Shown one piece after another: positions 771 to 36,557 of a DNA stretch of 64,000 bases. Within the stretch, counting starts at the first letter, position 1, and each line of letters opens with the position of its first letter. Position numbers and translations under genes: made by a program. Source of the stretch: a virus (Duplodnaviria > Caudoviricetes); IMG/VR virus record IMGVR_UViG_3300011008_000010, positions 1-64,000 of that record; one strand, 5' to 3'. The notes under the pieces are model-generated. The model was given only the letters and a program-made list of their open reading frames with translations. It did no database searches and was not told where the DNA came from.

Positions 771-1946
771 TCATTTTTCCACCCAATCATCCACAACCTT
801 CCCCGGAAATCTTAAATCAAAATACTTTTCGGCAGTTTCCGGATAATTGTTTTCAAAATCTGTCAATGCACGCATAGCCGTACACAACTTTCCTTCAGTC
901 TTAATCCTGGCTTGATTCGTAAGGCAGTATTTTCTAAACGTCATTTTCTTAAAGAAGTTTGGTTGATTACCCCATCTTGCCATAGTTATATACATTTCTC
1001 TATATTTAGAGCGCTTCCAGGGGGTATCATTTTTGTCTTGATACCGCATAATATATGGTAAGCACCTATACTGCATCAATAAGGCAATCCGCTTAAAGGC
1101 ATTTTCTATGTCAACATGATCTGTACTCTCAAATGCAACAAGAACGTAGAACTTCATACATGTTACACTAGTATACTTCCTTATCAGGTGGAGTTTTTCA
1201 TGTATTAAGTCATAGTCTGAAATGTTATCAAATGCGAAAGTGTAATCGCCATCATAATTCGCATTAAAAAGCATTTTGCATTTTTCATCCGTTAGCAGCC
1301 TCTCATCCATCCCTTGTTTAAATTTAAATGGCTTTTGTGTTGCTATAAGCTCTTCAATAATGTTTTTCCACTGTCCACAACCAAGGACATTATCGTCTAA
1401 TAAGCATATTTTCTTTCGAGTTGGATCATAAAATTCCTCTAAAGGACTATGTCTAAATACGTGATCATACTTCTGATTTACACAAAATGCGCATTTCCTA
1501 AAACAGCCTCTTGTCATAAACCCAATACTGTAATCTGTATACTCCTTAAATCGGTTCATATAGCTGGCCTTATTAAATTCAGATCCTTCTGCTATTGCTA
1601 TCTGCTCAGCTTTCTTTACCTCTTCTTCTATCCAGTCATCATACAGATGGTAATCAGGCATATGATGTTCTATCTCATCCGGAAGGTTTGGAGCTTTATC
1701 AAAATAAAATCCGGTACCGCCTATATGCACTTTTTCTGTTTCGTGTAGTCCTTCTGGTACCGGAGTATCAGTAAAAACCTTCGATATAAAAACTTGATCA
1801 TATTCATCAAATTTTTCATAATCAAGTTTTAGTTCAACAGTTGCACCTCTTTCCTTCCAGTATGCGGATAGTTTCTCGCAGACAAGGTTAGGAAAGCGAT
1901 GTTTTTGGCGACCAATAAGATCGGCATCGACAATTGCAATTTTCAT
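771..1946 (-). CDS. radical SAM protein
   Basis: TRGCFRKCAFC (CxxxCxxC), LLDDN, N-terminal FPNL..KLS..GGTG segment typical of phage-associated radical SAM proteins. Confidence 0.9.
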   Translation of the reverse strand: MKIAIVDADLIGRQKHRFPNLVCEKLSAYWKERGATVELKLDYEKFDEYDQVFISKVFTDTPVPEGLHETEKVHIGGTGFYFDKAPNLPDEIEHHMPDYHLYDDWIEEEVKKAEQIAIAEGSEFNKASYMNRFKEYTDYSIGFMTRGCFRKCAFCVNQKYDHVFRHSPLEEFYDPTRKKICLLDDNVLGCGQWKNIIEELIATQKPFKFKQGMDERLLTDEKCKMLFNANYDGDYTFAFDNISDYDLIHEKLHLIRKYTSVTCMKFYVLVAFESTDHVDIENAFKRIALLMQYRCLPYIMRYQDKNDTPWKRSKYREMYITMARWGNQPNFFKKMTFRKYCLTNQARIKTEGKLCTAMRALTDFENNYPETAEKYFDLRFPGKVVDDWVEK

Positions 1947-1957
1947 AGTTACCTCTA

Positions 1958-2251
1958 CTATTTAATAGGATTCTCCTCCGCATTATTATCTGGAATCATC
2001 TCCATAATGTCCGAAACATCGCAGTTTAATACTCCACATATCTTTGCCGGGGTGATAGCCAATGCAACATAGTTGTCAGCCATCCCTAAACCACTATGGA
2101 CATAGGTTATCTCGTATTCTTTTTCATCCAAGCCATGTGTAAAAACGGAACTCCATCCACTATCATCTACATCCTGTTTAATCCCTACCGCCGCCCCACA
2201 ACAAGGGCAATTATTGATCGAAATATCCTTCAAGTCTTTCCTCCTGTTCAA
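1958..2251 (-). CDS. chimeric ORF ending in the C-terminal part of a Cro/C1-type HTH
   Basis: C-terminus KICGVLNCDVSDIMEMIPD resembles the end of HTH_26 proteins; N-terminal helices missing. Confidence 0.45.
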   Translation of the reverse strand: MNRRKDLKDISINNCPCCGAAVGIKQDVDDSGWSSVFTHGLDEKEYEITYVHSGLGMADNYVALAITPAKICGVLNCDVSDIMEMIPDNNAEENPIK

Positions 2252-2420
2252 TCATCGGCATCATTATCTGCATCTGCTCCCGTATCGTATCATCCCACAG
2301 GCAGCAATCGTATAACTCTCCGTCACATACGCTGTCGCATACTTCACAACGGAGTCTGTAATCATCGTCCATGCCGAAGCTGTATTTACATTCAAGGCGT
2401 AGGTGAAATGGTATTTTCAT
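2211..2420 (-). CDS. hypothetical Cys-rich protein
   Basis: 69 aa ORF overlapping the MTase stop, GGAG RBS. Confidence 0.6.
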   Translation of the reverse strand: MKIPFHLRLECKYSFGMDDDYRLRCEVCDSVCDGELYDCCLWDDTIREQMQIMMPMIEQEERLEGYFDQ

Positions 2421-2767
2421 AGTTCCATCCTCCTTGCTATCTCGTAAATAACAGGTACGGTAACGCCGTTGCCTGACTGTTTATACAACTGACTGTCAGA
2501 ATTAACAAACTGTGTCCTCTCAAAATAATCATCCGTCCATCCCTGCAATCTAAAACACTCTATCGGCGTTAACCGCCTGATTGCTATGTAACATTGTTCC
2601 GGCTCGTACCAGACCGCATAAGCAATCACGCCTCCTTCAAGTTCGACAAATATCCCCTGATCGCTTTCTTCTGCATCCACCTCCACCTTTACATGCGGTT
2701 CGGCTTCATTCCCCGTGCCTTTGTAATATCGGGCAAGTATTGTCCCAGCGTTGTCAGCGTCTTTCAT
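2417..2767 (-). CDS. C5 DNA methyltransferase, C-terminal part (TRD-like module plus motifs IX-X)
   Basis: RRLTPIECFRLQG and QLYKQSGNGVTV; its ATG overlaps the upstream TGA (ATGA). Confidence 0.9.
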   Translation of the reverse strand: MKDADNAGTILARYYKGTGNEAEPHVKVEVDAEESDQGIFVELEGGVIAYAVWYEPEQCYIAIRRLTPIECFRLQGWTDDYFERTQFVNSDSQLYKQSGNGVTVPVIYEIARRMEL

Positions 2768-2925
2768 TTGCCCCCCCCCTCAATCCGACGTTTATCAAGG
2801 ATGACCGCAACGCCGCTCGTTTCGGCTTTATGACTGGAATATCCTTTGTGATATCTGCTCTGCAAACATCTTGCTTCATCTGTCAGCACCAATCCTCCGC
2901 CAATCGTCAAATCAACAAATTTCAT
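2764..2925 (-). CDS. C5 MTase TRD-like module (53 aa, below ORF track cutoff)
   Basis: MKFVDLTIGGGLVLTDEARCLQSRYHKGYSSHKAETSGVAVILDKRRIEGGGK; GGAG 9 nt upstream of ATG. Confidence 0.65.
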   Translation of the reverse strand: MKFVDLTIGGGLVLTDEARCLQSRYHKGYSSHKAETSGVAVILDKRRIEGGGK

Positions 2926-3172
2926 TTACGTCTACTCCTATCGCTATCTCGTGACGATCCTGCCCGGTCAGCGTGAAGGCATCCTCGCCGTTTTCCTTAA
3001 ACCGTCTGCCGTTCTGCCGCTTGTCCGCTCTGTCAGGCGTAAGAACGGGAATAACGACTTCCGGATTGTTCCCGTGCGCCTGCGCCCTGAGTGTAGGTAC
3101 AGTATCGCTCGGCTCGACCTCTTTATTCAGTCTCCCCCCCCTGTCTATCACACCCAACATGGATTGCGACAT
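2912..3172 (-). CDS. C5 MTase variable-region fragment (two TRD-like modules)
   Basis: VPTLRAQAHGNNPEV and IPVLTPDRADKRQNGRRFKENGEDAFTLTGQDRH, modules typical of Firmicutes phage multi-TRD MTases. Confidence 0.75.
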   Translation of the reverse strand: MSQSMLGVIDRGGRLNKEVEPSDTVPTLRAQAHGNNPEVVIPVLTPDRADKRQNGRRFKENGEDAFTLTGQDRHEIAIGVDVNEIC

Positions 3173-3695
3173 GATGCCCTCTACCGCCCCCCCCCCGCTG
3201 TGTCAAGGGCTTCCGTGATTCCGTCTCGGCTAAACACCTGCCGATTTCTTCTGTACCCGTCTTTGTGTCCGATGATTGAAACACGATTTTCTCTGTCTGC
3301 TGTTTCGACAGGAAATACTTCTGATCTACCGCATCCTCTAAGATGTCCGATAATGAATATTCTCTCTCGGTTTTGCGGGACGTAATCGGCAGAATTGAGA
3401 ACCTGCCACTCCGCATCGTACCCGCCTTTGTCCATTTCAACGAGAAGTCGGGCGAAATCCCATCCTCTATTAACACTAAGCAGATTTTTAACATTCTCAA
3501 TGAATAGGGTACGGGGTCTTTCTTCTTCTGGGAGTTGTCCCAAAAGGTACATAATTCTGAAAAACAGGCTTGAACGCTTTCCCGTGAATCCACATTGTTT
3601 TCCTGCAACACTAAGGTCCTGGCATGGGAAGCCGAAGCACCAACAGTCTGCCCGTGGGATATCTCCGGCATAAACTCGTCTAATGTCATCTGCAT
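3123..3695 (-). CDS. alternative-frame overlapping polypeptide inside the MTase (beta-chain-like)
   Basis: ~190 codons open inside the MTase; GGAG RBS 6 nt before MQMTLDEF; contains WTKAGTMRSG and YSLSDILEDAVDQKYFLS. Confidence 0.65.
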   Translation of the reverse strand: MQMTLDEFMPEISHGQTVGASASHARTLVLQENNVDSRESVQACFSELCTFWDNSQKKKDPVPYSLRMLKICLVLIEDGISPDFSLKWTKAGTMRSGRFSILPITSRKTEREYSLSDILEDAVDQKYFLSKQQTEKIVFQSSDTKTGTEEIGRCLAETESRKPLTQRGGGGRGHHVAIHVGCDRQGGETE

Positions 3696-3918
3696 ACCAT
3701 TCTCCATTCCTGTATTCCTCTTTCGTGATTTCCTTCTGCCTTTGTTTTAGGTCAAGAGAGGCAAGGCATTCCCGCTGCTGATCCGTTAAAAGGTGCATGG
3801 AAACATAACTCATATAGGCAAACTTATCAAACTCGCAGAATCCTACGCACTTATGCCCTGCCAATTCCATGCCCCGCCGAAATCCTCCAATCCCGGCAAA
3901 CCAGTCGATAAATGTCAT
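3181..3918 (-). CDS. C5 DNA (cytosine-5) methyltransferase, catalytic N-terminal part
   Basis: FAGIGG (I), GFPCQDLS (IV), ENVKNL (VI), QNRERIF (VIII); ends at TAG just after a G10 tract. Confidence 0.95.
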   Translation of the reverse strand: MTFIDWFAGIGGFRRGMELAGHKCVGFCEFDKFAYMSYVSMHLLTDQQRECLASLDLKQRQKEITKEEYRNGEWYADDIRRVYAGDIPRADCWCFGFPCQDLSVAGKQCGFTGKRSSLFFRIMYLLGQLPEEERPRTLFIENVKNLLSVNRGWDFARLLVEMDKGGYDAEWQVLNSADYVPQNRERIFIIGHLRGCGRSEVFPVETADRENRVSIIGHKDGYRRNRQVFSRDGITEALDTAGGGR

Positions 3919-4032
3919 GATCTTTCCCTCTCTACGCTGTCAAAATACTCCCTGTACCGTTCCTCTTTCCACAATCCTTCTGGCGGTTCACCGCCTAAAA
4001 GTGCGGTTTTCCAGTATTCGTACCGAAGCATC
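3915..4032 (-). CDS. small hypothetical protein
   Basis: MLRYEYWK... fills the gap, ATGA-coupled to the MTase. Confidence 0.35.
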
Positions 4033-4038
4033 TGGTTT

Positions 4039-4356
4039 TCATTCCACGACCTCTTTCTTATGTCGGATATACGGCACACCATTCCAGTCATAGCCATCAT
4101 CAAAATTCCATTTCAGTTCCCAGAAAGATACAAAATTGTCGCAGTAGCAAAAGTTCGGCGCGTTGTTATGCGGCATCCTTTTTCCCAGTTCATCCCACGG
4201 TACATAGTTATGACTTCCCCATCCCCATGCTCCGCACTCCCGCACTACCTCACCTTCAACGCCTAACAGATAGACGGTATCGCCCTCAATCAACTTCGAG
4301 CCGTGTATTCCTGCCTCATTTGGCGGCTCACTATAAAAACCGCTCCATTTATTCAT
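4039..4356 (-). CDS. hypothetical protein
   Basis: 105 aa ORF with RBS. Confidence 0.7.
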   Translation of the reverse strand: MNKWSGFYSEPPNEAGIHGSKLIEGDTVYLLGVEGEVVRECGAWGWGSHNYVPWDELGKRMPHNNAPNFCYCDNFVSFWELKWNFDDGYDWNGVPYIRHKKEVVE

Positions 4357-4402
4357 TTGTGTTTACCCCTTTTTCTGTACCAACCTTAAAAAATTATACT
4401 AT

Positions 4403-4663
4403 TCAAAATTTTGTGACATATCCAGTTGCTAAGAAAGGGCACTCATCTCCTTCATCTACGGCACATCTGTCATCCATTAAATGACAAACAAATATTTCTT
4501 GTTTATATTCGTCAGACACTTTGACTCCACCACAATCATCGCAATATTCCACATCTTCATTTTCTTCTAATTCTTCTAAAACCTCACTGTCAACAGCGAC
4601 AACATATGCAGAATACAAACATTCAAGTGGATCTGTGGGTATTGCGTCAACCAACAATCTCAT
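4403..4663 (-). CDS. hypothetical Cys/acidic protein
   Basis: 86 aa ORF, AGGAG RBS. Confidence 0.7.
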   Translation of the reverse strand: MRLLVDAIPTDPLECLYSAYVVAVDSEVLEELEENEDVEYCDDCGGVKVSDEYKQEIFVCHLMDDRCAVDEGDECPFLATGYVTKF

Positions 4664-4875
4664 CTATATATCTCCTTAAAAAATTTAATTAATTTCGGCA
4701 TTACAACCAAAATAAACGCCACAACTAAAACAATCGCGATATCTATCCATACAGGAAGTAATACCAAATACCAAGGCCAATCTATAACTCCGGTTAATCT
4801 AAGACAAATAAGTATAACCAACAGCGTACTAGACAAAGACATACCTGTGCTCGTCAATTTTCCGTTGTCTTTCAT
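4660..4875 (-). CDS. small transmembrane protein
   Basis: LICLRLTGVIDWPWYLVLLPVW, a common phage membrane motif; TAATG coupling. Confidence 0.8.
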   Translation of the reverse strand: MKDNGKLTSTGMSLSSTLLVILICLRLTGVIDWPWYLVLLPVWIDIAIVLVVAFILVVMPKLIKFFKEIYR

Positions 4876-35925: not shown

Positions 35926-36557
35926 ATTCGAAAGTTTGTTTGGGACGCAAAAATTGCCCGCAAAGCCGCACGGGTACTACAAAAAAATTTTTTTCGATTG
36001 TGACAAATAACAATTTATTTCAGTCGATCGGGGGAAAAATTTTCCATGCCGGGGGGGTACGGAAAGCCCATAAAATCAACATTTTTTTGTCGGAGGCCCA
36101 ATCACTCACCTTCATACACAGACCAAAAAATACCAATCCAGTCACTCCCAAAATAATATACAAAACAAATGTTCTTTCTCCAAAAAACCTCCTCTCCCAC
36201 ACTCACATCCATCTAATAACTCATATAAAAAAAACAGAAACTATGTTCGATAAAATATCTTCCTGGAACCTCTCTTTTTCAAAACCTCAAACTGCGAAAT
36301 ATGTTCAAAATTACTACGATTTTTTCCAACCCCTTTTAACTATCATAAAATATTCATCAGTGACACATTTTTTATCGTTTTATGATTATCTCACAACTGT
36401 ATTAATTCCATCTTAACAATCCCAATAATTATATCCCGGCACATCCTAACGCTAATCCTTCCCTCACATTTAAACCATATGTTCGATATTTATAAAATTA
36501 TAAAGTTCTAAAAATACTCTAAACACCATTCCACCCGATTTTTTAACAATTATCTGC

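Follow-up and report, generated by a model that had tools for sequence, protein, structure and literature searches.

The window, 64 kb from the start of an IMG/VR virus contig of 137,795 b (completeness estimate 77%), carries on its minus strand (3918-2417) a C5 cytosine methyltransferase gene which is split over four open reading frames (ORFs) and contains three poly-G tracts (T1, T2 and T3) in its variable region. The tracts are real and far beyond chance. The best reading of them, with a probability of about 0.55, is that the variable region is a contingency locus that re-partitions recognition modules, the enzyme being a horizontally acquired, orphan anti-restriction methyltransferase of phages with multiple target-recognition domains (TRDs), of the SPbeta/phi3T type. 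The slippery G runs probably act as mutational switches for the modules attached to the enzyme, since such runs change length in related phages.

In the proposed mechanism the catalytic core would be made as two chains, one with motifs I-VIII (N-chain) and one with motifs IX-X (C-chain), and the recognition modules encoded between them are in offset frames and have individual start codons. Replication slippage at the three tracts would change which modules are complete or covalently attached: T1 would select between a cut module A, a complete module A, or modules D and C fused to the N-chain, T2 would turn modules D and C off, and T3 would attach module B to the C-chain or release it. A phage population could thereby hold a heritable, reversible mix of methylation repertoires, hedging against the restriction systems of different hosts. 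We infer assembly of both core chains into an active enzyme, as in M.AquI, different specificities of the individual modules, and variation of tract length in this phage. The more specific proposal of a combinatorial and heritable "methylome bet-hedging", in which a two-chain core is served by an array of offset-frame modules that slippage plugs into either half or releases as separately translated mini-proteins, a single phage stock thereby holding many methylation repertoires, is advanced tentatively.

The Split Gene and Its Recognition Modules

The four ORFs (245, 86, 53 and 116 aa; Table 1) occupy three frames and are the four methyltransferase pieces described in a previous sequence-only reading of this DNA. 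The C5-methyltransferase motifs I, IV, VI, VIII, IX and X were found in canonical order, spread over two of the ORFs, chain 1 (FAGIGGF, GFPCQDLS, ENVKNL and QNRERIF) and chain 4. Chain 1 matched Pfam PF00145 at profile positions 1-166 (E 1.9e-42) and chain 4 at positions 274-322 (E 7.3e-12); the canonical motifs and both matches place the enzyme in this family, and its core matches M.HhaI and M.HaeIII in the PDB. Chain 1 showed 76-83% identity to hundreds of phage methyltransferases. The GC content of the cassette (47-54%) stands out from a background of 34-38%, and for this reason the cassette was probably acquired horizontally.

Table 1. Features of the methyltransferase locus, recognition modules of the read-through product, and products predicted at different tract lengths.
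Feature	Position	Strand	Description
Chain 1	3181..3918	-	245 aa including stop; motifs I-VIII and first half of module A (GITEALDTAGGG)
T1 (G10)	3187..3196	-	inside Gly-Gly-Gly turn of module A
Frame-2 tail	3123..3186	-	RGHHVAIHVGCDRQGGETE, then stop; homologous to the conserved module A end GGGRGHHVAL
ORF2	2912..3172	-	86 aa; modules D (…VPTLRAQAHGN…) and C (PVLTPDRADKRQNGRRFKENGEDAFTLTGQDRHEIAI)
T2 (G8)	3134..3141	-	in frame inside ORF2 module D
GGAG, Shine-Dalgarno-like	2935..2938	-	9 nt upstream of ORF3 ATG
ORF3	2764..2925	-	53 aa; module B (MKFVDLTIGGGLVLTDEARCLQSRYHKGYSSHKAETSGVAVI…); 14-nt overlap with ORF2 end
T3 (G9)	2771..2779	-	3 nt upstream of chain-4 ATG
Chain 4	2417..2767	-	116 aa; module B' (NAGTILARYYKGTGNE…), motif IX (RRLTPIECFRLQGW), motif X (SGNGVTVPV)
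Alternative-frame ORF	3123-3707	-	frame 2, 194 aa, overlaps catalytic domain; contains …LSDILEDAVDQKYFLS… / …LSDILEDAVDQKYFLSKQQTEKIVF…
Module A	read-through product, order 1	-	GITEALDTAGGGGRGHHVAI
Module D	read-through product, order 2	-	LGVIDRGGRLNKEVEPSDTVPTLRAQAHGN
Module C	read-through product, order 3	-	PVLTPDRADKRQNGRRFKENGEDAFTLTGQDRHEIAI
Module B	read-through product, order 4	-	FVDLTIGGGLVLTDEARCLQSRYHKG…
Module B'	read-through product, order 5	-	NAGTILARYYKG…
T1 = G10	stop at 3181	-	predicted 245-aa N-chain, module A cut
T1 = G9 or G12		-	module A predicted to be completed (…GGGGRGHHVAIHVGCDRQGGETE), then stop; 264-265 aa
T1 = G8 or G11		-	predicted 334-335-aa fusion product of chain 1 with modules D and C
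T1 = G9 with T2 = G7		-	predicted joining of completed module A to D and C; 334 aa
T2 = G7 or G9		-	stand-alone ORF2 predicted to be destroyed, 14-16 aa left
T3 = G9	stop at 2764	-	ORF3 (53 aa) and chain 4 (116 aa) predicted as separate products
T3 = G10		-	predicted fusion of module B to chain 4: 169-aa C-chain with B and B'

Each of the four pieces has its own ATG, located at or near a module boundary, and a purine-rich upstream motif, and the pieces are tightly coupled (8-nt gap, 14-nt overlap and ATGA overlap). The ATG of ORF2 is found 8 nt past the stop codon of chain 1, with GAGGG 4 nt upstream of it. The change from the ORF2 to the ORF3 frame at 2925 is not at a homopolymer; ORF3 begins there with the GGAG and ATG of its own that had been described, the ATG being preceded by three in-frame stops (TAG, TAG and TAA). 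From residue 1 onward ORF3 aligns to module B of an uninterrupted relative (P0088) with 74% identity, Met1 lying opposite Leu255. The ATG of chain 4 overlaps the ORF3 stop as ATGA, again in agreement with the sequence-only reading, and the T3 run lies directly upstream of it and could double as the ribosome-binding site for chain 4.

With frames named f0, f1 and f2 by start coordinate modulo 3, the path along the gene is f0, f2 past T1, f1, f0 at 2925 and f1 past T3. Four edits restore one 499-aa protein: removal of one G at T1, one G at T2 and one base at 2925, and addition of one G at T3. This read-through protein aligns end to end with relatives of 420-572 aa, and the homologous frames contain no extra stops. 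About 270 aa separate motifs VIII and IX in this product, and five TRD-like modules of the T(L/I) type, the number originally counted, follow one another within it (Table 1). Such an enlarged variable region of several contiguous TRD-like modules is that of a multispecific type of enzyme. In relatives these modules are found again, in mosaic arrangement, across 63 distinct variable regions (195-346 aa); at the DNA level, mosaic mapping against 80 homologues (~72-80% identity) placed no recombination junctions, the divergence being too high. The module D frame is kept before and after T2 (GVID-RGG-RLNKEV, as compared with GVID-PQG-RKAKRV in relatives), and ORF2 is therefore an intact unit in the assembled state.

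Poly-G Tracts and Their Counterparts in Related Phages

The three tracts have exactly the lengths and positions first reported for them. All are in the variable region, at Gly-Gly(-Gly) turns opening or inside TRD-like modules, and the catalytic part is tract-free. These three runs of 8-10 G are packed within 430 bp. In the rest of the window C runs do not exceed 5 and one further long G/C run was found (G7 at 36051); the whole contig contains a single further G/C run of at least 8, G10 at 104186-104195. When the mononucleotides of the 1,502-nt gene were shuffled 20,000 times, three runs of at least 8 appeared once, and GGG is the least used Gly codon of the contig (12%). Coding-sequence tracts are over-represented here relative to the genome, as in repeat-driven contingency loci.

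Alternative tract lengths are predicted to give alternative meaningful products. On enumeration the N-chain came to 245, 262-265 or 334-335 aa and the C-chain to 116 or 169 aa, and the N- and C-core chains stayed open at every tract length, consistent with the claim that both conserved halves can always be made. The fusions foreseen by the sequence-only reading, which numbered D and C as modules 2-3 and B as module 4, were reproduced: the former would be appended to chain 1 by G8 or G11 at T1, or by G9 at T1 together with G7 at T2, and the latter would be joined to the motif IX-X chain by G10 at T3. The frame-2 tail that ends module A would be translated only when T1 is G9 or G12.

Relatives were examined at 82 loci, the 80 best of 475 IMG/VR relatives and two GenBank phage records. 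Several shorter matches terminate just past the same Gly turn as T1, and the contigs of these independent relatives have runs at the T1 codon position: L085 (G9), L086 (G9), L087 (G7), L088 (G8) and L092 (G7). The opening Gly-Gly of the second module, corresponding to T2, is encoded by runs of G7-G11 in L085 (offset 873), L087 (814), L088 (818), L093 (822) and L109 (819); the number of runs per locus reaches six in L088 and five in L109. In tract-less homologues the T1 position reads GGT GGT GGG, GGA GGC GGA or similar, the longest G run being 5.

Tract lengths vary between contigs that are 88-96% identical. L086 (G9) and L092 (G7) share 96% DNA identity, and G8 would be in frame; at offset 491, G9 was found in L088, L089 and L090, which come from three samples, as compared with G8 in L091 and L093; at offset ~820, L088 has G11 and L093 G8.

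In a subclade represented by L087, L088, L093 and L109 and by the proteins P0059 and P0134, two adjacent modules, the first with …TLRATDYKDP… and the second with …NPTLTCNKNEG…, lie in different frames at a conserved offset which is not a repeat. The upstream tract there allows either the first module to be read, followed by a stop, or the first module to be skipped (out of frame, stop-free) and the second read. Both states occur: the first in P0117 (present in 4 contigs), P0134 and P0059, and the second in P0126. Since the non-repeat offset is conserved and both states are found in nature, the breaks are not randomly placed in this subclade, which answers, for this subclade, the possibility, raised with the original proposal, that breaks in homologues would be random. 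ORF2 showed 51% identity to gene 2 of L085. A correspondence between T3 and the tract opening the ALNARDYKG module of L088 (SGGG-MTETALALNARDYKG and EGGG-QMKDADNAGTILARYYKG, compared by eye) had no BLAST support and is not claimed.

Searches for the same lineage were negative, in collections that may lack records near the window, and so do not establish that the lineage is unique. Exact-protein look-ups of chains 1 and 4 gave no match, DNA patterns across T1 and a 26-mer between T1 and T2 matched no viral or metagenome contig, and tract-spanning patterns from L085 and L086 matched no viral contig. The closest relatives have at most 83% protein identity (among 5.8 billion proteins and the aligned IMG/VR loci), which leaves the lineage isolated within these collections. 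The neighbouring 398-aa gene has no relatives in IMG/VR. The relatives of the C-chain in IMG/VR have no tracts, and include an intact, intein-bearing homologue in the 150-kb phage L094.

Competing Readings and Known Systems

Several observations weigh against a contingency locus. Single intact ORFs of 420-572 aa, with all G/C runs of the variable region below 6, were found at 78 of the 82 related loci; tract positions, whose conservation the sequence-only reading proposed to check, recur for T1 in the five relatives named above and not in these 78, and the tract-bearing multi-frame layout is a minority state among relatives. Short relatives were picked as truncated proteins, an ascertainment bias that makes the share of "off" states meaningless. 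No near-identical contig, from which polymorphism or selection in the lineage of this phage could be judged, was found in the collections searched. None of the relatives examined has the module order A-D-C-B-B'. In the assembled state module A is cut short, and a second non-tract frame change, from the module A tail (f2) to module D (f1), lies off any repeat at ~3160-3150, between RGHHVAI and LGVID. Since the frame change at 2925 is not at a repeat, no tract combination (0 of those enumerated) gives a single-chain enzyme. Modules that are free-standing or attached to the N-chain would be functional only by proposal. The slippage interpretation first put forward is thus supported in part: the excess of tracts over chance and the length changes and module choice in relatives agree with it, and the lack of a single-chain state does not.

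The rival that survives best is a decaying gene. The cassette, its slippery tracts already present in the donor lineage, would now be dead, its frame changes being lesions and its start codons coincidental. Random decay, however, does not predict multi-frame layouts with conserved non-tract offsets, which are found in several diverged lineages, nor is it easily reconciled with homologous frames free of nonsense codons and further indels, with modules that are conserved (module C is ~86% identical to relatives, by eye), or with pieces whose ATG codons all fall on module boundaries or close to them. A dead gene would nevertheless be expected to show what is seen here, four or five frame changes in one gene with two of them off repeats, and no tract state restores one chain; moreover, the cassette is a GC-rich, foreign accessory element that may be dispensable, and a few relatives (L063 and L082) are broken too. 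Taken together, decay is the less likely reading but a serious rival.

Simple on/off phase variation, in which the tracts switch methylation, or parts of the enzyme, on and off and the modules do not differ in specificity, is the usual mode among phase-variable bacterial methyltransferases, and some relatives speak for it: in L086 one slip at T1 would restore the full-length enzyme, and the G8/G9 tract at offset 491, inside the catalytic domain of L088, L091 and L093, is simply an on/off switch. In the gene studied here the catalytic part is tract-free, all three tracts being in the variable region at module turns, and both core chains are open at every tract length, while in relatives the tract picks between alternative modules. 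A mere on/off switch is accordingly improbable for this locus.

An assembly or sequencing error at homopolymers, with a true gene less broken than the assembled one, is very improbable. Errors are frequent in runs of G9-G10 and the contig was assembled from a metagenome, but neither the break at 2925 nor the second frame change (~3160-3150) lies on a homopolymer, the same tract length was found in three independent samples (L088, L089 and L090), and errors can alter the length of a run without creating the run itself. Runs of A8 and T8 were found within intact ORFs of 539-1,488 aa, showing that the assembly has no general mis-sizing of homopolymers that would break other genes. Poly-G as an artefact of sequencing chemistry was discarded because such artefacts do not make internal runs matching conserved Gly-Gly codons.

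The proposed module-switching contingency locus, which we prefer, would combine features known from other systems. Multispecific C5 methyltransferases have been described in temperate Bacillus phages (M.Phi3TI, M.SPbetaI/mtbP and M.SPRI; Trautner et al. 1996, cited in PMC12707154). The enzyme shares with them the nature of an orphan phage C5 methyltransferase and an enlarged variable region of consecutive TRD-like modules of ~40 aa, and there is sequence homology as well: by tblastn, 87% of ORF2 aligned at 45% identity (E 2e-11) to the variable region of phi3T (M13488.1) and of SPbeta mtbP, so that the phage parallel drawn from the sequence holds for modules D and C. Unlike these enzymes, which are single polypeptides with fixed TRD sets, the present one is encoded by four ORFs in three frames, its offset-frame modules having their own starts and poly-G tracts being present in three.

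With no single-chain state at any combination of tract lengths, the enzyme could be active only as two chains, in the manner of M.AquI. The precedent invoked by the sequence-only reading is documented: M.AquI is a natural two-chain C5 methyltransferase split in the variable region, one chain comprising motifs I-VIII and the proximal variable region and the smaller one the distal variable region and motifs IX-X, and complementation between inactive fragments is known for M.BspRI, M.BsuRI, M.HhaI and M.SssI (PMC3404938). The layout of M.AquI, which like M.EcoHK31I is a natural two-polypeptide enzyme, is found in chain 1 (245 aa) and chain 4 (116 aa). M.AquI is encoded by two genes without repeats; in the present locus the halves are separated by two additional module ORFs, which slippage could fuse to either of them. 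The fold prediction of chain 1 with chain 4 reached 0.89, as compared with 0.01 for the best of three controls, which indicates likeness to one fold and not binding, because single-chain C5 methyltransferases are solved. The mark applied is reached by 58 of 80 solved complexes and by 2 of 110 mismatched pairs. Contact agreement between the runs was at least 83% and partner pLDDT (predicted local distance difference test) at least 64, and in the predicted interface the motif X helix lies on motif I, as in single-chain enzymes.

Phase-variable bacterial methyltransferases are exemplified by the poly-G Type IIG cj0031 of Campylobacter jejuni (PMC4889913). The likeness lies in a coding-sequence G tract in which a change of length shifts the frame, with a change of methylation predicted here from the sequence. 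Phasevarion loci are bacterial, mostly N6-adenine, usually with one tract and on/off; the present locus is a phage C5 enzyme in which three tracts would re-partition modules. Hypermutable poly-G tracts are known from Fletchervirus phages of Campylobacter, in receptor-binding protein genes (Sorensen et al. 2021 Cell Rep, cited in PMC11959909). In common with these, the contig contains poly-G tracts in a phage genome, including the G10 in a fibre-cluster gene considered below; in contrast to them, the tracts studied are in a methyltransferase of an AT-rich, gut-type phage. Literature searches, of incomplete coverage, returned no description of poly-G-switched or phase-variable modules of phage C5 methyltransferases.

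Other Features of the Contig and Biological Meaning

The G10 run at 104186-104195, outside the window, is in frame (…SQSSAGGGLNIV…; …SSAGGGL…) in a tail-fibre cluster gene of 294 aa (37% GC), some 47 codons from its start. A fibre-cluster gene is a typical contingency target, and this one was counted for the contingency reading. A one-base slip at this run would leave only the N-terminal anchor. Its local context, GC-G10-C, is the same as that of T1. No PHROGs family was found for the gene.

The alternative-frame ORF of Table 1 continues through T1 only thanks to the extra G. Its peptide LSDILEDAVDQKYFLSKQQTEKIVF resembles a common C5-methyltransferase segment, and is open and conserved in L001, L088, L109 and the distant L094; no significant Pfam match, to PF00145 or any other family, was obtained for this ORF. 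The methyltransferase and small flanking ORFs form a GC island at ~2000-4400 (45-54% GC; genome 34-38%). Within it, a 69-aa Cys-rich ORF (2211-2420) overlaps the end of chain 4, and a radical-SAM gene (771-1946; phrog_9298) adjoins the island. A promoter and terminator scan of 1900-4800 gave signals at shuffle level. At the end of the contig, an ORF on the minus strand (2-547) ends in a long Gly-Tyr/Gly-Asn/Gly-Asp dipeptide repeat (…GYGNGYGNGNGYGDGDGDGYGNG…), encoded by a DNA repeat of short period, read as AVAVAV… from the opposite strand, which could vary in length.

Among relatives, the small ORFs that follow the three-piece, tract-bearing methyltransferase of L085 (L085:5561-5792) include restriction-alleviation genes of the Lar type (PF14354), an anti-restriction neighbourhood. 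Two homologous methyltransferases (L002:3019-4551 and L094:602-2752, one of them in a 150-kb phage contig) have an intein-like insertion inside motif IV (GFPC / …VHN / CQD).

Orphan methyltransferases are a main route by which phages escape restriction. The recognition domains of multispecific enzymes have been regarded as fixed sets, and phase variation of methylation through repeats has been described for bacterial genes. Annotation pipelines routinely label broken methyltransferase genes of viromes as pseudogenes or assembly errors. If the module-switching reading is true, phage populations would hold standing variation in which restriction systems are evaded, with consequences for host range, phage therapy and the reading of such "broken" genes. 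The locus may also offer a natural system in which to study how C5 methyltransferases recognise targets by modules and assemble from split chains and, should free-standing modules act in trans, these would represent a new mode of target recognition for this class of enzymes.

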